Source: Candidatus Latescibacterota bacterium (lineage in GTDB: Bacteria; Latescibacterota; UBA2968; SICM01). From it: 64,000 bases of DNA. The notes under the pieces are model-generated. The model saw only the letters and a list, made by a program, of their open reading frames with translations. It was not told the origin of the DNA and did no database searches. This document shows positions 1,489-51,779 of this stretch, one piece after another (within the stretch, counting starts at the first letter, position 1; each line of letters begins with the position of its first letter). The stretch covers positions 1,984,001-2,048,000 of the forward strand of contig CBDCJO010000002.1 in assembly GCA_965217865.1 (NCBI GenBank). Reading direction: 5' to 3'. The position numbers and the translations under genes are program-made.

Positions 1489-1614
1489 GTTAACGCCCCG
1501 GCATCCCCGAACCTGCGTCTTATCCTCCGAAGCTCCGACCCTGTCCTTCCGAAGCTCCGAAGGAGCGAAGGAGGGGAGGGCTGTCAGGCCTGAGCTGGGG
1601 GTGCTGTGTTAGGC
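1488..1614 (-). other. attC recombination site
   Basis: Minus strand GCCTAAC-A-CAGCACCCC...GGGGATGCCG-GGGC-GTTAACT. Confidence 0.7.
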
Positions 1615-1688
1615 GGGCCGAAGGCCGAGCGAAGCGAGCGTTTGCAGGGTGGACCTATTTCGCCAGAATGGGAACTCGTATCGGCGAT

Positions 1689-2114
1689 CTATCCTAACAA
1701 ATGAACTTCAGCTGCTGTCACAAATGCATCTTCAGGTTTTCCGAGGAAGTTTCCGTCCGGATACACAGACGGCTGGTACTTTTCATTCGAGTAGCTGAAG
1801 AATCCGAAACCCCACTGGTCCTGTCCGAAATAACGGAGGCGGCATAGGTGGATAGGTGTCTTCCTAAGCTTTTCGATGTATTCTTGTCGGTTAACCTTCC
1901 AGCTTTTCGGTGGCCAACTTTTAGGCAGATTCGGTTCACAGAATACATCTATGTATCAGAACTGTGAGCGAAACCGAATCTCGAGACGTTCATACTTCCC
2001 TTCAAAATGCTTCTGTGCCACCTTCAGGATGCGACGTTCGACATCGGCTTTCACAGGGGTTGGAATCTTGACGCCGCCGGAGTCAGGGACAAATCCAAAA
2101 TCCACCGGAACCAT
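1689..2114 (-). pseudogene. Hypothetical cassette protein (141 codons) with an in-frame TGA at codon 53
   Basis: RBS GGAG. MVPVDFGFVPDSGGVKIP...EIRFRSQF*YIDVFCEP...HLCRLRYFG...FFSYSNEKY...; the frame stays open for 88 more codons after the TGA. Confidence 0.65.
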
Positions 2115-2251
2115 GACTTCTCTCCAAGGGTTTCGTCCACGCGCGCGCGTTAGTCTCGAGATTCGATCGGCAAGGTTAGGAATTGAAAACCAGGCTCAAA
2201 TTTCCGTCTCACGGTGTTGACACGCATTGTGTGTTTCCGTTCAGTCTTAAG

Positions 2252-2707
2252 CTAAGAGGGCTGACTCACCAAAGCATGTTTTTCCAGACTCGCTTTCACC
2301 TCCTGATTCACGACATAGGACGGCATCTCAAGTTTGATTTGCCTTCTCTCCGCGTCTTTGAGGGAAATCACCACAGCATTAGGCTGTAGATCGATTGACG
2401 AGATCTCCTCCCATTCGGCTGCACAGGTTTTCCGGAAAGGACTGGGCATAATCTCCACACCTTTGTCATCGATTGTGATGCGGGGCCTTCTATGGGGAGA
2501 AGCGAGAACTGTCACGGCCAGGATCAAAACAAAGAGCATCAGAGCGGCAACGGTCAAAGTTACTATAGAGAAGGTCTTAAGCTCAGGAACGGATAGGCCC
2601 TTCACACCCTGTAGTACAATTAGGATTAGGTACGCCGTGAGGAAGAACCAGAACAGCTTGCTTCTCCTAATGTCGCTTTTGTCTGGAAAGATGGTTTTGG
2701 CCTCCAT
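2252..2707 (-). CDS. Hypothetical membrane protein (two TM helices, PH-like C-terminus)
   Basis: ORF with GGAGG RBS before ATG 2707 and two hydrophobic segments. Confidence 0.65.
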   Translation of the reverse strand: MEAKTIFPDKSDIRRSKLFWFFLTAYLILIVLQGVKGLSVPELKTFSIVTLTVAALMLFVLILAVTVLASPHRRPRITIDDKGVEIMPSPFRKTCAAEWEEISSIDLQPNAVVISLKDAERRQIKLEMPSYVVNQEVKASLEKHALVSQPS

Positions 2708-2827
2708 CTTTGCCTCCAGATTTGGGGTTTGACACCGCATGCCAATGCCCGTAACGTACAGGCTCATGAAATAGCTACAATAACCTGAAAGATAGATTGT
2801 CTTCTTGGTCTTCGTGTGGACGATTGG

Positions 2828-3301
2828 TTAGCTCCTGCGCCATATTTGATAGGTGTAATCAATATTCGATTGAAATTCTTGAGTAAACACCAGGGAGAAC
2901 CCATCCGGTATATCTGGAAAAAACACGTCGCCATCAACCTCGCAATGTACAGTAGATACATGTAATGTATCTGCCTTGTGAATCATGCTATGGTAGACTT
3001 GCCCACCACCAGCTACAATCAGATGATCTGTAAGGGTTGACATTGCACTGAGCGCATCGTCAATCGATGAGAAAGCCCGGATTCTATTCGATTCCTGCAA
3101 CGCATCCGAATTTGTCAGGACTGCATATTTCCTGTTTGGAAGTGTTCCCATTGACTCAAAAGTCTTGCGTCCGACCAACAACCATTGGTTATAAGTCAGG
3201 GCTTTAAAAAAGAGCTGCTCACCCTTTGCCTTCCATGGAATGTTCGGCCCAGCGCCGATAACCCGATTATCGGATTTTGCTCCAATGAGTGAGATAATCA
3301 T
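2828..3301 (-). CDS. dfrA: Dihydrofolate reductase, DfrA1-like trimethoprim-resistance family
   Basis: 157 aa with [43 protein letters not shown] and YQIW blocks. Preceded by cassette core GTTAGGC (3360-3354). Confidence 0.92.
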
Positions 3302-3484
3302 TTGTGGAAAACCTCAAGATGGGTTGGTTGGGTTTTGCTTTTAAGCCAGTTTCGCCTAACGATTTCTATATTGAGTAAAGGAGGAAAAAACAGCGTTGAG
3401 GGGCTGAATCTTCCCTTGCAAGGCAAGGTGTCTTAAGATTCGGCAAGCGCAAGCAAACTCAACCCTCAACGCTGGAGGTATACG

Positions 3485-4816
3485 ATGAAGTCGAAAATCT
3501 TCCACCTTAAACGACAGGCCATCTCCCAGAATTTCGTCCTCGGGATCGATCCGGGCAAGGAAAAACACAGCGGGTCGGTGCTCGATCCCTCCGGACTTCA
3601 GCAAGGCGGGGCCTTCTCATTCCCCGTGACGCGAGCGGGATATGACCATACCCTCTGGCAGCATCTGGAGCGACGCATCAAAGATTGCGGGCCGGATCGG
3701 ATGGTGGTGGCCATCGAGACGTCCTGCAATCTGTGGGTTACCCTGGCCCACTACCTCCAGGGGAAGGGGTATCGCGTGCTGCTGGTGAGCCCCCTCACGA
3801 CGTATCACGCAAGACCGATGATGCACCGCGATTTCTCCAAGTCGGATCCCAGGGATGCCTTTCTGGTGGCCGACAGCGCACAGAAGGGAAGCTATGATCT
3901 CTTCAGGACGTTCGAGCCTCACATGGAGGCCGCGCACCAGCTCTCAATCGCCTACGACAAGCTCCGGAAGGACCTCACAAAGTCCCTGCTCCGCACCCGG
4001 TCTCTGATGGAACGCGTCTTCCCGGAGTTCCTCCACGCGGTCAACATTCGTACGAAGACCTCCCGCTACCTGTTGGAGCGATATTTCTTGCCCCGCCACT
4101 TCGAGGAAATTGACATCGAAGAGGAGGGCCGCCAGATCCATCGGATCTCAAGAGGCAGTTACGGGGTGGCGACGCTGCAGAAGCTGAAGGAGGAGGCCCG
4201 GACCTCCATCGGGATCCCGGTCGAGGGCCAGGAAGATGTCCTCCGCATCATCCTGAATGGCTGGATCGAGGCGCTCCGGCGGACCGAGACGCAACTCAAA
4301 GCTGTGGAGCAGGCGATGATCGCCCGCACTCAGCAGGATCCGACTTTCCAAATCGTCGACTCGATCTCCAACATCAACAAAAACCTGGCTGCCCAATTTA
4401 CCGCGGAGACGCGAGGGGCCACCCGCTTCACCCACTTCAAACAGATCGAGAAGCTCGCCGGCACGAACGTGCGCATCGCCGACTCCGGAAAGTACAAAGG
4501 CAAAAGGCGGATGAGCAAGATCGGCAATCCCCGGCTGCGGCGAATCATCTACCAGATGACCGAACAGACCGCCCGGGTCGTGCCCCAGGTCCGCCGCCGC
4601 TTCCTCGAACGCGAGCTCAGGAAGAAGTGCTACCGCAAGAATATCGTGGCCGCCTCGTCCCAGCTCCTACGGCTCATCGTAGCCCTGCTCAGAGAAAATC
4701 GTCTCTACGAGGAGAGAGACCACCCCGCGGCATCCCTCAAAACGCTCGAGAGGCGCTACATGAAGCGCTACAAGAAAAAGCAGCATCCCCGACGGCGCGC
4801 TCGCGCCGCCGCCTGA
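3485..4816 (+). CDS. IS110-family recombinase/transposase
   Basis: GIDPGK, AIETS, KSDPRDA (DEDD) and C-terminal DSGK...SKIGNPRLR; RBS GGAGG. Confidence 0.95.
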   Translation: MKSKIFHLKRQAISQNFVLGIDPGKEKHSGSVLDPSGLQQGGAFSFPVTRAGYDHTLWQHLERRIKDCGPDRMVVAIETSCNLWVTLAHYLQGKGYRVLLVSPLTTYHARPMMHRDFSKSDPRDAFLVADSAQKGSYDLFRTFEPHMEAAHQLSIAYDKLRKDLTKSLLRTRSLMERVFPEFLHAVNIRTKTSRYLLERYFLPRHFEEIDIEEEGRQIHRISRGSYGVATLQKLKEEARTSIGIPVEGQEDVLRIILNGWIEALRRTETQLKAVEQAMIARTQQDPTFQIVDSISNINKNLAAQFTAETRGATRFTHFKQIEKLAGTNVRIADSGKYKGKRRMSKIGNPRLRRIIYQMTEQTARVVPQVRRRFLERELRKKCYRKNIVAASSQLLRLIVALLRENRLYEERDHPAASLKTLERRYMKRYKKKQHPRRRARAAA

Positions 4817-4899
4817 CCGCTGCCGCGGTCACACTCGCTCTTTGACATCGCTGCTCGATTCACATCCGGTGCAGTCTCCTGCCGGACCGGTTACACAAG

Positions 4900-5200
4900 C
4901 TGCCGCCTTCCAAGGCGGCCAGGGGCGGCCTGCAGAACTGGCTTGAGAGGAGGGCTCCGATAGGAGTCGCTTCGGCTAACAGATCCGCAGGCCTCCCCGT
5001 CTTCCTGGATCGGATTAGAAAATGCGCGAAGACCGGCACACCTACTCACACAAACAAGAGTGCCGGCCGCGGATGTAAGTTGGTATCGGAAGACACCACC
5101 CCCCACACGGGAGCTTCGCCCCTCTTCAAAGACCGGTCCTGCACCATAAGGGCGAACTGCGCTCCGAACATAGTAAGAATGTCCACTTTACACCCCTTGA
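4900..5200 (+). ncRNA. Putative bridge/seekRNA in the IS right-end non-coding region (boundaries approximate)
   Basis: Two stems with internal loops (GGCCTGC 4927/GCAGGCC 4987 and GTCTTCC 4999/GGAAGAC 5088). The region is conserved in a second copy. Confidence 0.6.
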
Positions 5201-5274
5201 CGCTGAGAAAACCGGCATAAAAAATCTCATCCAACCTCGAAATCGTCAACTTTGCTCTTGACTTTCCGCATGTA

Positions 5275-5338
5275 GTTCAGCTGGCCCCGACGCCGCCGTA
5301 AGGCGGTGTTTGGATTTTCCGGGGCCAGCGTGTTAAGC
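5275..5338 (-). other. attC site, R'' side; its R' (3354-3360) was separated by the IS
   Basis: GGCGCTTAAC is exactly complementary to the cassette start GTTAAGCGCC at 6097; stem GCTGGCCCCG/CGGGGCCAGC. Confidence 0.85.
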
Positions 5339-5403
5339 GCCGTGTTGCGATCAGAGAGAATTGACGAGCAAGGCCTGGGTTCTCGCTCAGTAACAAAAAG
5401 GTT

Positions 5404-6000
5404 CTACTGCTTTTCAAAGTCTAGTCCTACAGGTTGTCTTGGGTACTTAAACCGTCTTACGTCAGTGTTAGGTACTTCGCTACCAACCACCTCGAACTTT
5501 ATATCATCGATCCAGGCTTGGCCTGGACCATCGAGCAAAATGCCAAAAACGAGATTGGTACTGCTGAGAGGAACATCCAAGACAATCTCATATGCCTTCC
5601 AATCAATTGTGCCTTTGAGCGGCCTATCCTGCATGTTGTCAAAACTAAGAAATCCTTTTCCTGGGGCGTCTACACGCATCCACATTCCTACCCAATTCTG
5701 AACATCCTTTACTTTGATGTATCCGGTCATGCGAACACGTTCGCCATAGAAACCGGCAGCTCCACATACTTGCATCAACGTGCCGAAGCCGCTTGGTGGG
5801 GAAACTTTCGACTTGATCATTCCGCTGAATTGCCCCCCGCGATGCACTTTGTCATCTAGTCGCATATCATAGTCGCCAGGTGACTTACCTGCTTTGATCC
5901 AACCTTCGGGCAATCTGCCCTCCTCTGCTACAGCTACTCCTGTTCCCACAAAGATGGTCAAGAAGAGAACAATCAGAGTAGAGATCTTCTTAGGCATCAT
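5404..6000 (-). CDS. Secreted beta-sandwich (carbohydrate-binding-like) protein, first gene cassette
   Basis: Signal peptide. GFGTLMQ...GMWMRVD...FDNMQDRP.KGT.DW...VLDVP motif, a domain I recall from fusions to AraC regulators and esterases. Start codon uncertain. Confidence 0.75.
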   Translation of the reverse strand: MMPKKISTLIVLFLTIFVGTGVAVAEEGRLPEGWIKAGKSPGDYDMRLDDKVHRGGQFSGMIKSKVSPPSGFGTLMQVCGAAGFYGERVRMTGYIKVKDVQNWVGMWMRVDAPGKGFLSFDNMQDRPLKGTIDWKAYEIVLDVPLSSTNLVFGILLDGPGQAWIDDIKFEVVGSEVPNTDVRRFKYPRQPVGLDFEKQ

Positions 6001-6090
6001 GTGCAAATCCTTCCCCGTCAAGTGTCACGGCAATAGAATGTTATTGGAAGTCAACTGACCCGCTTCTCAATCATACAGCAGCAACATGGC

Positions 6091-6200
6091 GCTTAACTTA
6101 CGAAATCCCTGAACTCCTACGTAGATTTCATAATTTCGGCATAACTCCCGCCCTGCGCAGATACCTCCCACGAAGAAGTAACCGGTATATGTTCGTAGAT
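6091..6200 (-). other. attI-like site, locus A
   Basis: Non-palindromic GTAGGAGTTCAGGGATTTCGTAA|GTTAAGC with three ATCTRCG direct repeats. Homology with locus B stops exactly at the GTT. Confidence 0.7.
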
Positions 6201-6247
6201 CCCTTGCTATAGGAGAAATCGTTTTAGGATGAACTCACCTTTGACGG

Positions 6248-6490
6248 TCACATCAAACTATCCAGACTCTGAATCTTTGCGATATCTCGGGTTGTGACCC
6301 TTACAGTCTTTTCTACTCCTGCCTTTACATATGCCCGTTCGAATTTCTTTTGCACAGAACGCTCATGGAGGTGTTATCCTGGACGTCGTATTTCCTCTTT
6401 TGGCTGGCAACGGTCAGCCCGGTTACTGTGTCCAAAAAGTGTGCAATAGAAGGTCTCGTTTGGTGCGCGTTCCTCTCAATTGATGTTAGT
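6248..6490 (-). pseudogene. Internally deleted integron-type tyrosine recombinase relic, locus A
   Basis: RPG*HLHERSVQKKFERAYVKAGVEKTVRV fused directly to TTRDIAKIQSLDSL. The HxLRH...Y catalytic block is missing. Confidence 0.7.
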
Positions 6491-6520
6491 ATATATCACA
6501 CCAAAGCCAAACAAAAACAG

Positions 6521-6571
6521 AGGGGTTACCACCAAAACCCGCGTCAGTATTGGGATTGGCGATAACCCCTT
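6521..6571 (-). terminator. Hairpin/terminator, repeated at 51651-51699
   Basis: GGGGTTAccaCCAAaaCCC...GGGATTGGcgaTAACCCC with a U-rich tail on the minus strand right after the rSAM stop. Confidence 0.55.
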
Positions 6572-7459
6572 TCAGCTTTCTGTTTGAAATGAAAAGTTGG
6601 AACAGATGGCCCCGTGGAGATAACACGTGTAACATGCCCGGTGCCGGAGGGGGTAGGGAATCATCGCCTCATCAAGGGTTTTGCCGAGCATCGCGTCCGG
6701 TGAATCGATCAGGATGGGGCACACCCAGACACCCCTGTCGGTCACGATTCGGCTGTTTGCACAAAGAAGATTATCCTGGTTGTAGTCCCGCATCATCTCA
6801 CGAGTGATCTGCTCGTGATCCGTGTAACCTCGGGATCGAACGACTTCCCGTCCGAGCTTCAGGGAGGGAAGAAATTTCAGGCGGGGTCGATCATAACCGA
6901 TGGCCTTGAGCGCAGCCACGAAGCCCCGCCGAACATCGGGTTCTTCAACATCGTCCCAGACCCGGGCTGCGGTAATAATCGGCAGGAAGTCATACCCGAG
7001 GAGAAGCCGAACACCAGCCATGGCCCTTTCAAAGGTGCCCTCGCCACGGATCGGGTCATTTGTCTCCGGTGTGTAGCCGTCGATACTGATCCGGAATTCC
7101 AGAGAGTAGAGCGACGACTTTTCGATCTCTGCGAGGCGTTGAACATCCTCATCCCGGAACACCGTCCCGTTCGTCAGAACCGTCGCAGGTCCGATCGACA
7201 GGGTTTCAGCCAGAATGTCTACAATTTTTGAATTCATGAACGGTTCGCCACCGGTAAAATAGTACTCCTTGACCCCAAGGCGTTGAGACTGTCTCAGGGA
7301 CCTCCGGACCTGCTCGAGCGACAAGAATTCAAAGCTGTGATTGTCCGGGCTGCAACTGATGAAGCAGTGGTCACACCAGAGATTGCAGACCGTCCCGGAC
7401 ACCTGAAACCAGAGATTGTCAAGGTCTTTTGGAACGACTTCGGGCGCGGATGATTTCAT
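6572..7459 (-). CDS. Radical SAM protein
   Basis: CNLWCDHC, FTGGEP and C-terminal C...C...CYTC...C cluster ligands. Confidence 0.9.
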   Translation of the reverse strand: MKSSAPEVVPKDLDNLWFQVSGTVCNLWCDHCFISCSPDNHSFEFLSLEQVRRSLRQSQRLGVKEYYFTGGEPFMNSKIVDILAETLSIGPATVLTNGTVFRDEDVQRLAEIEKSSLYSLEFRISIDGYTPETNDPIRGEGTFERAMAGVRLLLGYDFLPIITAARVWDDVEEPDVRRGFVAALKAIGYDRPRLKFLPSLKLGREVVRSRGYTDHEQITREMMRDYNQDNLLCANSRIVTDRGVWVCPILIDSPDAMLGKTLDEAMIPYPLRHRACYTCYLHGAICSNFSFQTES

Positions 7460-8730
7460 ATTTTTTTCGCCTGGGATTCGAGCTCGCAGGTTGAATACAG
7501 ATCTAACTCCGGATTCCCCGTGATGAGGGTGAAGACATCTCGGATTTGTTCGAGCCCCATGCGGATCAGGAAAGTCGAATTTCGGCCATAGCTTTTGGCC
7601 CCGACGATGTAGAAGTCGGGTTCCGGATTTTTTAAGACTTCCGGACCTGCGCTGGTCTGTGCGAGGCAGTCTGAGTTTGAGGACCCGGAGAGCAACGACG
7701 CAGCCAGTTCAATCGGACCGGAGGTGGCATAGCATTCGTGGACTTGAAGCTCCCGGTAAATCGAGTTATCCGGAAGGTAGCCCACGTTCCCGATGATCCG
7801 GTCCACCTCCACCGCGCGCACGTCGTTTTTTTGGCGAAACACGACGGAACGGCTTTTCCCATCGTCCGAAGACCGGATCGATTCAACGCCCGCTGAGGCG
7901 TAAAACGAGATGGCGTCACAACTCCCCGATGCAATCCGATTTGCGCTGGCAATCAGGGCCGATCGTCTCGGCAGCGGATCGTTCGGAATGGGCTGATAGG
8001 GGACGTCGGCCTCGCCCGCGGAAATCCAGAGAAGCGATGTGACGGGTGATTCCCCGGAAAGCTGCTCGAAAGCCAGGGCGGTCGTAGCCGCCGAAAACCC
8101 CACTCCGATCAAGAGCGTCCGCATCCCGGCATAATCTGACCGCTGCCCCCCCAGGATGTCTTCCAGTTGGTAGCGGATCCATGGGGCGCTCTCCCTTTCA
8201 CCCGGGGCCGGTATCCCACCGCTCCCGATCCAGCCGTGATTCCCGTAAGTGCCCGTTGCGTCGATCACGATGTCCGCCAGATGGACCCGCTCTGAGCCGC
8301 TTCCCTCGTGGACTAGAATGCGGAAAGGATGGCCGGACCGACCGTCGTCTTCAGGTAAGTCTTTTTTAAGAAGACCTTCCCGACCCAGGGCGATCACCTC
8401 TGTGTCGGTCAGGATGCGATCTCGCAGGGCGGGGAGACGGCTCAGGGGGTGCAAATAATTCTCGACGTATTCCCGCCCTGTCCGGAGCGTGCCGTTTTCG
8501 GGGAGGGTCCAGCCTGGGTCGAAACCCGATAGGGACTCCATACCCAGAGACGAGCCGTTGATAGACCAGGGTGAGAACAGCTCCACGAAACCCCAGTCAA
8601 GAACGTGGGCCCCGATACCATCCCGTTCGAACACCGTCACCTCATAGCCCAGTGTAGCAGCGTAGAGGGCGGCCTCCAGGCCGATCGGCCCTGCACCAAT
8701 GACGGCGATCCGCCGTTGAATGTCCCCCAT
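7456..8730 (-). CDS. FAD/NAD(P)-dependent oxidoreductase (ArsO-like flavoprotein)
   Basis: GAGPIG Rossmann motif, DATGTY, NPEPDFYIVGAKSYGR. Overlaps the rSAM start by 4 bp. Confidence 0.85.
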   Translation of the reverse strand: MGDIQRRIAVIGAGPIGLEAALYAATLGYEVTVFERDGIGAHVLDWGFVELFSPWSINGSSLGMESLSGFDPGWTLPENGTLRTGREYVENYLHPLSRLPALRDRILTDTEVIALGREGLLKKDLPEDDGRSGHPFRILVHEGSGSERVHLADIVIDATGTYGNHGWIGSGGIPAPGERESAPWIRYQLEDILGGQRSDYAGMRTLLIGVGFSAATTALAFEQLSGESPVTSLLWISAGEADVPYQPIPNDPLPRRSALIASANRIASGSCDAISFYASAGVESIRSSDDGKSRSVVFRQKNDVRAVEVDRIIGNVGYLPDNSIYRELQVHECYATSGPIELAASLLSGSSNSDCLAQTSAGPEVLKNPEPDFYIVGAKSYGRNSTFLIRMGLEQIRDVFTLITGNPELDLYSTCELESQAKKI

Positions 8731-8737
8731 ATAAATA

Positions 8738-9355
8738 CCGTATCTCGTATCTCGTGAAGCGGAAGAGCAAAATCCTGGGCTCTTACGAGATGCGCTTCAC
8801 GCTTCATCGTGGTTCGTGATCCGAGGATCAGAAAACCCGGGTTCGTGGATCGTGACTCGGGGGTTGAGGTTTCAATCCGAAACCAACGAATCGGAAATCC
8901 GCGAAGCTCCCTCACCCCGCCTCGCAAGCTCGGCACCCCTCTCCCGGGTGCCGGGAGAGGGGAAGATTATTGACTTACGAAAATAATTTATGGCCGGAGC
9001 CACCTGCTGGCGGCGAAAAACCTATCCCCGTCCTTCGACTACGCAGCGCTTACGCGCTGCTCCGCTCAGGAGGTTGTCTTTATGGATAGGAGAGATCTTA
9101 GGTTTGACATTTGGCAAAATCAAGGCGACATCCCCCTTCCCGTTTCGGGAAGCCACGTCCTGAGCGGAACGAAGTGGAGTCGAAGGAGGGGCGCAGGGGG
9201 TTAGGACTGACCGCTGACCGAAGTTTGTATGTTCGTCAAGGTCACCTGAACGTTTCACGGTTTTTCTTTCCCCTGCTCCCTGACTACCGGTTTTGACCTC
9301 CCCTGACCTCCGGCCCCTGCATTTTCCATTTCGCACCTTGCAGTTTACATTTTCA
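8738..9355. repeat. Intergenic mosaic of REP-like palindromes and heptamer repeats
   Basis: CCCTCACCCC...CCCTCTCCC/GGGAGAGGGG; CTTCGACT...GCTCAGG/CCTGAGCG...GTCGAAG; (GTATCTC)2; TGCATTT-type runs. Confidence 0.7.
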
Positions 9356-46832: not shown

Positions 46833-48176
46833 ACTCGATAAATCCTTTCACGTTCTGTTGGGGGCCGAACCATACTCGGCACCCTCGCTCGACGAGCAGA
46901 CTGACGGTAGACGACTCAGAACAAAATAATTTATGGTCCGATTGTCAACTTCATTTGTAGCAGGGGAAAACAGGACGTTCGTCGTTTAATGAACCCCGAA
47001 GGGGTTGCCCGATAGGGGCAGCGGAATATGCCCAGTAGCATTAACCCTTTGCTGGCAGAATGCACCCAACAACAGTACCTTGTAATGGATCCAACCCAAT
47101 TGTGAACACGTGTTCACAATTCCAAACGTGGCCGGGCAAATTGTCGTGGATCAACCGGCTGATTTGCGGTTGTAGGTCTCCATAAGAACGGCCTCCATCG
47201 CCAGCCGGGGGTGCTCCTTACCTGAAGCCAGGGCCTTGGCGATCTCTGTGCGTAATATACTGTATTGCGATAACTTAAATCTCATTATGTCCGAACGGTC
47301 GGATTTGGTCGACGTTTCAAACTGCCACTGCTACTGCTTTTTCCCCCTGACCTCCGACCTCTGGCCCCTGACCTCTGCCTTTCCTTTTCCTGCCACTGCC
47401 ACTGCCTTTGTTTTCCCTGACCTCTGACCCCTTATCAATTCTGCACGCGCGTGCAGAATTAACCATGTAAACCTCTGTTATATGTAACGACTTAAATAAT
47501 TGCGCATAGAATTTTGGAGAGCTTTGCTTAAACGGGCCTCCTCCTTTTTCTGAACCCAATGCCTGACCGATCTCCGTGCGTAGTATTTTGATCGACGCTT
47601 CACGCCGCCACTGCTACTGCCCTTTCTCGTCTCTCTCGCGTTTCACGGTTTTATCAATCTTCAATTATCCTCGATCTTCAATTCCCACTGGCTCTACCTT
47701 TGTCTTTCCTGCTACAGCCCTTCCTGACCCCTACCATGCTGTTGCTTTTTCCTGCTACTGCTTTTCACGTTTCACGTCCCACGTTTGACGTTTGACGGCC
47801 TTTCATGTATACGCAATTAATTATGACGCATAGGGTGAGTTGCTCAAGCAAAATATATGAGATCGAGTTGAGTAAGATCGCAGCTCTATTCAGGAATCCA
47901 AATACAGCCGCAGCCCTATCGGTAGATGCCATGCTGGGATTGCCCTACATCAGGATGTTCTCTTCTCTCTTATGGCCAGTGCTCGCTTGTAAAGAGGCTC
48001 GGCCCTGTGTATACTTGCCTTGGATATTGTAAATTTCAGCAAGGTTATTCAGGGAGGTCGCCGTAGAGGGATGGTCTGGGCCGAACAGCCAAATTTAAAA
48101 GCCTTTTTCGCGACCTCAAGGGCTTCGTCATACCGGCCCTCATTGTAGAGTTTCTCCGCTTTTGTGTTGAGGGCAT

Positions 48177-49572: not shown

Positions 49573-49652
49573 TCATAACGTTCAGTGGCTCACGAACCCG
49601 CGATAGTGGGTTGGTGCGGAGCGAAGCGGAGCCGTGAGCCACATGTTATGGG
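49573..49652 (-). other. attC recombination site
   Basis: CCCATAAC-AT-GTGGCTCACG...CGTGAGCCAC-TGAAC-GTTATGA. R'' is complementary to the cassette start GTTATGGG at 50718. Confidence 0.88.
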
Positions 49653-49670
49653 AAGTACCGCCATCGACAT

Positions 49671-50666
49671 TTAGGAATCAAACACGTTCATCTGTAGTAA
49701 CTCGGGCCAGAAGAGATTCTGAAGATCGGCCAGAGAATGGATTGGAGGAGATCCCGCCTCGCGGTAGAAATCTCGAAGCCAGCCCAGGGCCCTATAGCTA
49801 TGAAGGTAGAATGCTAAGCAGCTTCGGCGGAAATCCTCCTGCATCCTTTCGGTTGGATCATAGGCTCTCATGAATGCTTTCATGGCATCAACATCTCTTT
49901 CAAAGGTCCAGAACCAAAGATCAACCCAGTCATATCCGGCAGGAGCAATCATCGCATCAGCCACATCGATTATCCCTGAAATAACCCAACTTCCACCGCT
50001 CCGCGCGAGAATCAGATGATCTCCCGTCAAATCAGCATGCGCAAGGACATTGGGACCATCCAGGTATTCGTGTGAAGTACATAGAGCGAAATTCTCGATT
50101 TCATCTATCACGGCTGAAGGTAACTCACTAAATCCCTTGATTTCGCCCAGAAATTCCCTGAGCCTCGCACTGCACAGCTCTCCCCAGGTTTTTCCGACCT
50201 GTTGGACCCTGTTTTTCACGGAATGGTCGCATTTATGAAACTGGAGAAGGCACTGTCCCAACTCAGCACCGATCCGACGTAACTCACCTGCTGTCAGTTG
50301 ATGCTTTACGCTGGAAAAAGGCTCTCCCGAGATGAATTCCATAACTATGTACGACCATCCTTCATCCAGCCCATAGGTATTAGCGGATATCAGATCAGGT
50401 AGCGGTACTCCGTCCATCTTTCGCGATCCCTCCAAAACCGCACTTTCAACCTCATACTCCATTCTTTGATCGCTTCCGAAAACTTTCACCACGCAATACT
50501 CATCAAGAACAAAGATCAAGTTATTGGAGAACTCAATCCTTGACTTGGAGTATTTGATGCCTTCAATCGCAGCTATCTCCGCACAAACTGACTCTGCGAG
50601 GTGGGGATCGTCACGAAGTCGATCCCACGCAGTTTGTCCTTTCGCAGATCCCAACGCTCCGTTCAT
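49671..50666 (-). CDS. Aminoglycoside phosphotransferase-family kinase, gene cassette
   Basis: VVKVF, YIVMEFISG, HADLTGDH, GIIDVAD. Bounded by an attI-like site and an attC. Confidence 0.8.
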   Translation of the reverse strand: MNGALGSAKGQTAWDRLRDDPHLAESVCAEIAAIEGIKYSKSRIEFSNNLIFVLDEYCVVKVFGSDQRMEYEVESAVLEGSRKMDGVPLPDLISANTYGLDEGWSYIVMEFISGEPFSSVKHQLTAGELRRIGAELGQCLLQFHKCDHSVKNRVQQVGKTWGELCSARLREFLGEIKGFSELPSAVIDEIENFALCTSHEYLDGPNVLAHADLTGDHLILARSGGSWVISGIIDVADAMIAPAGYDWVDLWFWTFERDVDAMKAFMRAYDPTERMQEDFRRSCLAFYLHSYRALGWLRDFYREAGSPPIHSLADLQNLFWPELLQMNVFDS

Positions 50667-50711: not shown

Positions 50712-50825
50712 CCATAACTTACGGTATTCCCGAACTCCTACGTAGATTCCTTAATTTCGGGATAATCCCCGCCTTTCGCAGATACCTCCCCACGAAAAAG
50801 ATACCGGTATATGTTCGCAGATGCC
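50712..50825 (-). other. attI-like site, locus B
   Basis: GTAGGAGTTCGGGAATACCGTAA|GTTATGG, paralogous to 6091-6200. Confidence 0.7.
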
Positions 50826-50845
50826 TTCCTATAGGAGAAACCGTC

Positions 50846-51110
50846 TTAGGATGAACTCACCTTTGACAACTGCATTAAACTATCCAGAGGACTCTGAATC
50901 TTTCCGATATCTCGGGTTGTTACCCTTACAGTCTTTTCTATTCCTACCTTTACATATGCCCGTTCGAATATCTTTTGCACAGAACGCTCGTGGGGGTATC
51001 GTCCTGAACGTCGTAGTTCCTCTCATGACTGGCAACCTTCAACCCGATTGCTGTGTCCCAAAAGTGTGCAATCAAAGGTATCGTTTGGTGGGCCTTCCAT
51101 GATGTTAGCA
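50846..51110 (-). pseudogene. Internally deleted integron-type integrase relic, locus B
   Basis: HERSVQKIFERAYVKVGIEKTVRV|TTRDIGKIQSPLDSL with the terminal SPLD motif. Confidence 0.72.
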
Positions 51111-51258
51111 CATATCCTGAACAACACCCAGAAAAGCCAGCATTAAAGAATTTTAATGCTGACTTAATTCTATTTTAATCTTCCATTGCTATATTTAGAA
51201 TTGTCTGTTTCAGCCCGAATTTTCTTATTTTAACTTACCCTCATTCCTGGAGGTTGAT

Positions 51259-51591
51259 ATGTTCCAGAAAATTGGTGCCCGTGCAGCCATAGCAACAGTA
51301 ATTGCTATAGCCGGCTTATTTGCTGCTTGCAGCCAAACACCAACGGGTCCTCCATTTGCACATAAAGCGGCGTCTGGCCCTATAACTGCCGATCAGGCTA
51401 AATCGATTTCGGCACAAGCCTTAGGAGGAACGGCGCTTTCGGTTAAGCAGGAAATTGACGACGAAGACGGAGAGCAGGTCTTCGAGGTTAAAGTTCAGGT
51501 GACAAGCCCTCGATTTATGATCAAGGAGGTAGAAATCAGAATTTCGGACGGAGCCGTCCTGGAAATTGAGAATGCCGATAACGATGACTAA
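51259..51591 (+). CDS. PepSY-domain lipoprotein
   Basis: RBS GGAGG, FAAC lipobox, ITADQAKSI...VFEVKV...EVEIRISDGAVL. Confidence 0.82.
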   Translation: MFQKIGARAAIATVIAIAGLFAACSQTPTGPPFAHKAASGPITADQAKSISAQALGGTALSVKQEIDDEDGEQVFEVKVQVTSPRFMIKEVEIRISDGAVLEIENADNDD

Positions 51592-51779
51592 GTCCGATCT
51601 TTTCTTCCGTTAAGGTTACCACATATCACACTAAAGTCTAGGCAATAAAGGAGTTATAACCAAATCCCGCGTCAGTATTGGGATTGGCGATAACCTCTTT
51701 CCAATTTTACGAATAAAAAAAGCGTTCAACTCAAAAGCTGAACGCGATGACTTTTTCCCCTGGCTTTTGGACTCGGGCT

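Follow-up and report, generated by a model that had tools for sequence, protein, structure and literature searches.

Integrons are defined by one attI site beside the gene of an integrase that carries the I2 insertion, and I2 and the extrahelical bases of attC sites are regarded as products of co-evolution, a chicken-and-egg problem (PMC4792948, available sections). The literature on integrases, CALIN/SALIN arrays and attC-targeting insertion sequences includes the view that recombinases without the additional domain are not IntI (among other sources PMC8618304, PMC8138268 and bioRxiv 2024.07.02.601686). Co-oriented, or 'inverted', integrase genes are described in the integrons of, for example, Treponema spp. 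(PMC4889954, excerpt), and in archaeal integrons attI lies downstream of intI (bioRxiv 2022.02.06.479319, excerpt). For CALIN and SALIN arrays, mobilisation in trans has been proposed, and their origin is described as attG insertion or integrase loss (PMC4889954; bioRxiv 2022.09.11.507474; excerpts of both). IntegronFinder, as far as the excerpted description goes, matches only the attI sites of classes 1-3, and these exactly (PMC4889954). IS1111-attC elements are known to insert at attC (PMC11187229, excerpt). In the literature that we searched, with most subscription journals outside it, neither cassette arrays without I2 nor orphan attI sites in several copies were found described.

The window considered here is a stretch of 64,000 nucleotides from a Candidatus Latescibacterota genome (assembly GCA_965217865.1, contig CBDCJO010000002.1, here called C2, positions 1,984,001 to 2,048,000). 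It holds two related units, A and B, which, judged by alignment and folding, are very probably docking sites ('heads') of an integron-like system without I2. Much of what the available texts describe for co-oriented integrons recurs in this system: the recombinase gene points at the docking site, the crossover is G|TT, the cassettes look promoterless and end in R''...R' hairpins of which the bottom strand folds better, and one cassette is dfrA1-like. Unlike the co-oriented integrons of those texts, it has a recombinase that lacks I2 and carries an extra N-terminal domain of about 90 amino acids, hairpins without the extrahelical L-box base, and ten heads instead of one. The system would appear to work like an integron, yet two defining features, I2 and extrahelical bases, are missing from it.

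Two related units with a common end

Over 408 columns, window positions 6094-6497 (A) and 50715-51116 (B) are 84.3% identical, and on the minus strand both stop at CGTAAG|TT, with the crossover G at 6097 in A and at 50718 in B. Past this point the DNA is unrelated, no BLASTN match being found between the 4.8 kb behind A and the 6.7 kb behind B. A sequence-only reading of the window had proposed that the two are diverged paralogues that end at one GTT and are followed by different cassettes, and these comparisons bear it out. Along the minus strand each unit opens with a hairpin repeat, after which come 110-135 bp of unassigned DNA, the stub of a recombinase gene, a non-coding head of about 155 bp, and CGTAAG|TT. 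The features of both units are as follows.

6091-6247, minus strand: attI-like head A, crossover G|TTAAGC with G at 6097; one of ten copies found by nhmmer
6111-6114 (GTTC, 13 nt before G); 6120-6126, 6156-6162 and 6194-6200 (ATCTRCG), minus strand: boxes of head A
6248-6385, minus strand: recombinase 3' stub A, HLHERS...KTV|RVTTRDI...LDSLM and stop codon; deletion join at 6302
6386-6521, no strand: non-coding segment, only in A and B; 6485-6521 resumes in B at 51615
6522-6569, no strand: hairpin repeat of 48 bp at the 5' edge of unit A; adjoins the stop codon of a radical-SAM gene
50712-50869, minus strand: attI-like head B, crossover G|TTATGG with G at 50718
50732-50735 (GTTC); 50741-50747, 50777-50783 and 50816-50822 (repeats), minus strand: boxes of head B
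50870-51010, minus strand: recombinase 3' stub B, same deletion join (50927), SPLD motif
51011-51116, no strand: non-coding segment common with A
51104-51627, plus strand: 511-bp insertion of B relative to A, 13-bp direct repeats at 51104-51116 and 51615-51627
51259-51591, plus strand: PepSY-domain ORF inside the insertion
51650-51697, no strand: hairpin repeat at the 5' edge of unit B

Both heads contain three ATCTRCG repeats, at 103/104, 65 and 29 nt before the crossover (the genome-wide rate is 0.016 per 130 nt); the first reading had correctly recognised them as retained at both loci. The stubs have the same layout in A and B (HLHERSVQK...KTVRVTTRDI...LDSLM) and match the only near-full recombinase gene of the genome (C2:1657175-1658279). 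Relative to that gene they have in common a net in-frame deletion of 117 nt, which removes 39 codons including HTLRH and the catalytic Y, so that neither A nor B holds an intact catalytic block. The first reading had seen this loss in both stubs and had placed the fusion at KTVRV|TTRDI; the loss is real, and the actual join is KTV|RVTTRDI.

Only about 140 bp of the unit is derived from the recombinase gene. Beyond A and B, the 110 bp at 6386-6495 have no other match in the genome or in the loci that we fetched, and they were rejected as recombinase gene or its upstream DNA, the scores lying within those of shuffled sequences. The head also was considered as an attC in its own right and rejected, because its fold is no more stable than that of shuffled sequences (z 0.11 and -0.22). 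Homology between the units extends to 6573 in A and 51701 in B, across the PepSY insertion. The inserted segment (51104-51627), whose 13-bp repeats start with GTTA, is missing from A and single-copy in the genome; it was rejected as a cassette, as it has direct repeats only and no R'' or hairpin.

The hairpin repeat, of 48-55 bp with the conserved loop CGCGTCAGTATT, occurs five times in the genome, three times beside heads; the copies outside A and B lie at C2:4235468-4235521, 4411251-4411304 and 4621566-4621620. Rfam gave no match in unit A, unit B or the five-copy hairpin, and one tRNA in the window.

Cassettes behind A and B

Behind the G|TT at the end of each head lies a cassette, and the hairpin of that cassette opens with the complement of its own start. 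For the first cassettes this complement between R'' and the start amounts to 10 nt at 5332-5341 (A) and 9 nt at 49645-49653 (B), as had been noticed from the letters alone. The two arrays are composed as follows.

5404-6021, minus strand: gene of cassette A1, 205 aa counted from the first start codon; matched by no Pfam or NCBIfam family
5275-5341, minus strand: attC-like site of cassette A1, with R'' and both arms; its R' GTTAGGC displaced to 3354-3360 by IS110
3361-5274, plus strand: IS110-family element with its transposase gene at 3485-4816; insertion point directly before R' of attC A1
1495-3360, minus strand: second cassette of array A, R'' 1608-1615 complementary to the start 3353-3360
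2828-3301 (dfrA1-like), 2252-2767 (STM3941-like) and one further ORF, minus strand: genes of the second cassette
49671-50666, minus strand: gene of cassette B1, APH-family phosphotransferase of 331 aa
49573-49653, minus strand: attC-like site of cassette B1, intact, perfect 10-bp stem, no bulge
circle junction expected for cassette B1: R' side of the hairpin joined to TTATGGGAG

The bottom strand of attC B1 folds at -22.5 kcal/mol (z -5.7) and the top strand at -16.0, whereas the hairpin of the second cassette in array A folds no better than shuffles (z -0.76). Array A ends in a truncated start after this second cassette. Array B is a single cassette, that of the APH-family gene: within 6.5 kb behind its hairpin there is no matching R'', and the TPR gene found there was therefore not counted as a cassette. 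As in CALIN and SALIN arrays, the cassettes lie without a working integrase nearby (PMC4889954; bioRxiv 2022.09.11.507474; excerpts of both), and attC-like sites without an adjacent integrase gene are present at both loci, two at A (one of them split by the IS) and one at B.

The dfrA1-like dihydrofolate reductase gene (window 2828-3301, minus strand), whose cassette closes in a bulge-free hairpin, scores 253.5 bits with NF000330 (cut-off 250). Elsewhere on the contig there is a second copy (C2:344942-345415), 92.6% identical to it.

A class of bulge-free hairpins

A heuristic scan of the genome returned 107 candidate attC-like hairpins, of which 48 were stable and 31 of those lay on C2 with an R' of GTTA. 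A perfect stem of 7-12 bp without a bulge is found in 26 of the 31, including the hairpins behind heads; the extrahelical base in the L box, a trait of canonical attC sites, is missing from the same number. In this class the stem ends about 12 nt from AAC, and the spacer is asymmetric. Five of the 31 were classed as bulged, none of them within 4 kb of a head. With a strict detector we counted 36 hairpins in the genome; three shuffled versions gave 4, 5 and 8.

All ten heads carry GTTC 13 nt before the crossover G, and [GT]TTC stands 13-16 nt before G in 19 of the 26 bulge-free hairpins and in none of the five listed sites of canonical type. We infer that heads and hairpins have an L-box in common. 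Canonical-looking bulged attC sites lie at C2:4459471, 4966234, 4980751, 1500843 and 1604053, in a genome with no canonical IntI above cut-off.

The IS110-family element of array A precedes GTTA at 10 of its 11 intact right ends, its targets being bulge-free hairpins, and this preference provides independent evidence that the hairpins are a recognised target class. It is possible that a guide-RNA system is aimed at the class. IS1111-attC elements likewise place an IS110-family element at one end of cassette hairpins (PMC11187229, excerpt), but the element considered here differs from them in targeting bulge-free ones. Besides window 3361-5274, the element is present at 15 other places in the genome.

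The recombinase

The near-full gene on C2 is co-oriented with its head and points toward the docking site, a candidate attI with a GTT crossover about 155 bp behind the stop codon; we call this head integrase-linked and the other nine orphans. In the present assembly the gene is split by a frameshift. A database protein of 368 aa, P0001, is an uninterrupted allele, 99% identical, in which the catalytic block is present, and this favours capture in trans; the frameshift in the assembly and P0002, another broken allele, count against it. An intact SPLD-type integrase had been expected elsewhere: the assembly does not provide one, since its only near-full gene is frameshifted, and the database allele does.

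The closest solved structure to P0001, both by sequence (E 1e-43) and by fold, is that of Vibrio cholerae IntI4, and a Foldseek search with the whole model gave only tyrosine recombinases among the matches listed. P0001 has no I2 insertion: its residues 265-287 face residues 176-240 of IntI4, with 21 residues in place of 63, and the insertion is missing in all 31 aligned homologues. With TIGR02249 the protein scores 220 bits (cut-off 265), split into two stretches, and this model has no match above cut-off anywhere in the genome. Because it lacks I2 and falls below the TIGR02249 cut-off, the cognate recombinase is, by its sequence, not a canonical IntI. The relics described earlier as integrase remnants pointing toward attI do align to a recombinase related to IntI4, though not to a canonical IntI, as I2 is missing.

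An extra alpha/beta domain of about 90 aa is predicted with good confidence at the N-terminus. The label 'HARP-like' that we use for it is a weak one, taken from sub-threshold Pfam similarity (10 of 31 family members at E<=0.05, best 0.00087, none above cut-off). Proteins of NF040815 have a similar build, with Phage_int_SAM_4 and Phage_integrase domains, an SPLD tail and no insertion; P0001 scores 205 bits with that model (cut-off 220), and P0020 scores 228, above it. Unlike such proteins as they are described in the text available, the recombinase considered here comes with a docking site and a cassette array.

Ten heads in the genome

By BLASTN and nhmmer we found ten heads, all on C2 and all ending in CGTAAG|TT, together with two weak, incomplete copies and two headless fragments of the gene end. 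The supposition that the system is dispersed is thus supported genome-wide. Alignment shows that the heads derive from the 3' end and the downstream DNA of a co-oriented, I2-less tyrosine recombinase gene, and five of the nine orphans keep at least 54 bp of that gene end. In this, and in keeping a cognate docking site, the loci differ from CALIN and SALIN arrays.

Compared with the 3 kb downstream of it, the start behind each head finds complements of 10, 9, 7, 10, 10, 4, 8, 10, 9 and 4 nt; compared with the DNA of other heads it finds 4-8 nt, with one of 9 among 90 cross-comparisons. An exact R'' complement of 7-10 nt therefore lies within 3 kb of eight of the ten heads (of the other two, one has a single mismatch and one has none), which speaks for capture in trans. 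So does the pair formed by the integrase-linked head and the head at C2:4999632, which are 99.1% identical over 214 bp and carry different cassettes. Only the integrase-linked head and that at C2:1789439 have a common cassette leader, so that ten heads have nine different starts. Against capture in trans stands the state of the first attC, which is IS-split, truncated, degenerate or absent at six of the nine orphans.

The 5' ends of the heads are ragged, retaining the whole gene, its last third, 50-100 bp of it, or nothing. Units A and B have both ends in common, and several contigs of sequencing run X9 hold the hairpin-plus-stub part; the 5' ends of the other eight heads differ from those of A and B. 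The '~400-bp module' of the first reading hence describes the A/B sub-lineage and not a general unit. No MITE-like terminal repeats or target duplication were seen by eye.

The exact 3' and ragged 5' ends, and the many bulge-free hairpins that sit far from any head, would also fit a movement of the head to the cassettes, in which the integrase recombined DNA bearing a head into the hairpin of a cassette or small array already in place. We regard this as rather improbable. A 9241-bp contig of X9 tracks the radical-SAM flank with 77 differences over 2350 bp, then continues, by record coordinates, into other DNA left of 6574, which suggests that head and array arrived at this place together; moreover, class 1 attI recombines into genomes to no significant extent (bioRxiv 2022.09.11.507474, excerpt).

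A third head, at C2:1982755 (plus strand), is found 1.2 kb outside the window, on its left side, and is directed at array A. It faces the head at window 6097 (minus strand) at a distance of 7.3 kb, giving converging arrays with inverted IS110 pieces between them.

Metagenome contigs and relatives

In run X1, which may be the source of the DNA, positions 6060-6600 lie inside one contig of 3688 bp with no differences, and a B-type contig is also present; runs X4 and X8 hold exact pieces of locus A. The same deletion is bridged by one contig each in X9 and X10, runs of other studies; in X9 the hairpin-plus-stub part recurs on four more contigs, at 17-33 differences. Run X9 gives no coverage of the first cassette of A, a gap to which we attach no weight. 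An assembly artefact or strain chimera might be suspected from the bin contamination of 9.3% and from the head pair that is 99% identical. We consider it extremely unlikely, as contigs of X1 and X4 reproduce locus A letter by letter, contigs of B type exist, the near-identical pair collapses in X1 to a contig of about twice the single-copy depth, and the flanks of A and B are unrelated.

As a DNA query against 40 relatives, head A gave a single match, of 36 bp at the gene end, and nothing in the attI part, for which reason the relatives were examined through their own recombinases. Nine were searched with their own head or that of a close relative, and six of them gave at least two matches. 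Matches that reach the crossover number five in G056, four in G028, three in G068, two each in G070, G042 and G011, and one each in G065, G039 and G007; the G007 head has six extra partial matches, none extending as far as the crossover. The copies of L250 and L251, in which no crossover motif was found, are counted on BLAST extent alone. A BLASTN search of relatives with the module, as first suggested, thus recovers little with the DNA of A itself and multi-copy heads with queries native to each relative. The attI-like position behind the recombinase gene is the same in relatives, and G042, with a recombinase 82% identical, has kept the GATTCCGTAAG|TT core and the repeat at -29. The exact attI pattern had no match in metagenome contigs.

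We assembled 159 loci of the recombinase family from GTDB and metagenomes (54 N-extended, 49 short and 56 IS91-linked). The N-extended loci have 11 bulge-free hairpins in the 133 kb downstream on the gene strand, against 1 in the 540 kb of the other three compartments; the short loci have 8 downstream, all in one locus, against 4; the IS91-linked loci have none downstream. With the strict detector, only a minority of the N-extended loci that have 1.5 kb or more downstream show the link to hairpins (6 of 27), which counts against capture in trans. A looser scan marked 15 of 79 GTDB loci. The 56 loci without hairpins were assigned by a transposase motif that we take to mark IS91 linkage. Unlike IS91-linked tyrosine recombinases, the gene studied here has a head and cassettes downstream and no rolling-circle transposase gene. 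At E<=1e-60 the recombinase finds matches in 22 of 115 genomes of the same class, some of IS91 type.

The relatives also bear in both directions on capture in trans. In G056 the start of one cassette is present in both an orphan and the integrase-linked array, which favours it. Two observations weigh against it: an exact R'' complement occurs in the fetched 1.5 kb at only one of ten orphan heads of relatives, and one pair of orthologous orphans, in G028 and G056, has the same first cassette, 99.6% identical over 3.2 kb, where the integrase-linked heads differ. The recombinase gene is apparently frameshifted or truncated in several near-complete relatives (loci L187, L203, L245, L255, L210 and L193) and whole in the short-read bin G068; the broken genes may reflect either sequencing error or repeated decay. 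One locus of that bin (L262, G068:C51:20101-33743) has an intact recombinase, a head and four hairpins, with two more heads 9 and 12 kb downstream on the same strand.

The static orphan pair, locked first cassettes and broken recombinase genes would be expected if each head were what remains of an integron that was once complete, retained by chance or because it serves as promoter of a fixed first gene, and if A and B differed through loss of parts of one ancestral array. We find this improbable. A precise loss at G|TT would also require an enzyme, and A and B are without any common cassette. The crossover 20-mer is among the best-kept parts of the head (mean identity 0.89, against 0.74-0.87 for most other parts), and a sigma-70 consensus promoter has no site in head A and none inside head B (the promoter type of the host may differ).

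History of A and B and a model for capture

The stubs of A and B are 89% alike, and each is 78-79% identical to the full gene; as the deletion is common to both, it is older than the split between them. The attI segment has a different history. That of B shares 91.5% identity with the integrase-linked copy and 87.1% with A, a tree of the 205-bp attI segment places B with the integrase-linked copy (support 97/95), and a clade of A and B is rejected (p-AU 0.006). A breakpoint test on three sequences did not reach significance (p 0.16). Probably one of the two units is a recombinant, and because B groups with the integrase-linked copy and not with A, homologous recombination may explain B in place of independent capture. 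A simple course of duplication followed by capture is only partly supported: a duplication after loss of the integrase, as first proposed, agrees with the common deletion but not with the kinship in the attI part.

Carried further, these data would allow a chimera in which RecA-type recombination, acting in the ~200 bp held in common, joined an A-type deleted stub to a docking site and its cassette from an integrase-linked platform of this or a sister strain; orphan heads would then be passive, and no capture would take place at a dead platform. An X10 allele that mixes A-like letters with B-like indels, at a depth of 2, points the same way as the nearness of the two stubs, the attI identities and the rejected clade. 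We nevertheless consider this account doubtful. Its donor must be unseen, the first cassette of B being at no other head including the integrase-linked one, the breakpoint test lends it no significance, and it leaves unexplained both the nine starts of ten heads and the near-identical pair with different cassettes.

In the reading that we adopt, A and B received different cassettes after the deletion, through a recombinase acting in trans, and on this we are evenly divided. As the two have the deletion but no cassette in common, at least one array must have changed after gene death. The independent capture in trans that had been proposed for both is favoured by this lack of a common cassette and weakened by the possible recombinant origin of B, and the step in trans is one that we infer from sequence. 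In Xanthomonas, arrays are usually identical among strains whose intI has the same lesion (bioRxiv 2025.06.18.660453, excerpt), which counts against capture in trans.

Judged by sequence and by analogy with class 1 integrons, the recombinase would bind the GTT box at the crossover and the GTTC box 13 nt upstream; the latter would be mirrored in the 3' arm of the hairpin, and the phased ATCTRCG repeats would be accessory sites. The double-stranded head would be recombined with the folded bottom strand of a bulge-free attC-like hairpin. Heads may multiply when pieces of a platform are duplicated or taken up, and may afterwards lose sequence from their 5' end, with at least the last 125 bp kept. 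For an array that changed after gene death, the simplest source of enzyme would be the near-full locus or an incoming allele, and later IS insertion or decay of the first attC would fix many cassettes in place. A wider version seems to us unlikely as a whole: some ten live docking sites would form a genome-wide network for which a single I2-less recombinase, equipped with an extra HARP-like domain and able to read bulge-free hairpins, is the trans-acting enzyme, and the ~480-bp hairpin-stub-attI unit would spread as a non-autonomous gene-capture module; if true, genes would be captured at many chromosomal places invisible to integron finders.

An intact enzyme allele, ten docking-site variants and 26 bulge-free hairpins make up a natural matched set without I2 and without bulges, with which the need for I2 in cassette capture and the capture of cassettes by orphan docking sites become testable. 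Given the dfrA1-like cassette, the system may exchange genes with the canonical cassette pool, unseen by profile-based integron surveys.

The window also contains dense multi-copy intergenic repeats of the TCACGAACC/CTGACCTC types at 8730-9330 and 47300-47850, with very high contig depth near 8877-9193.
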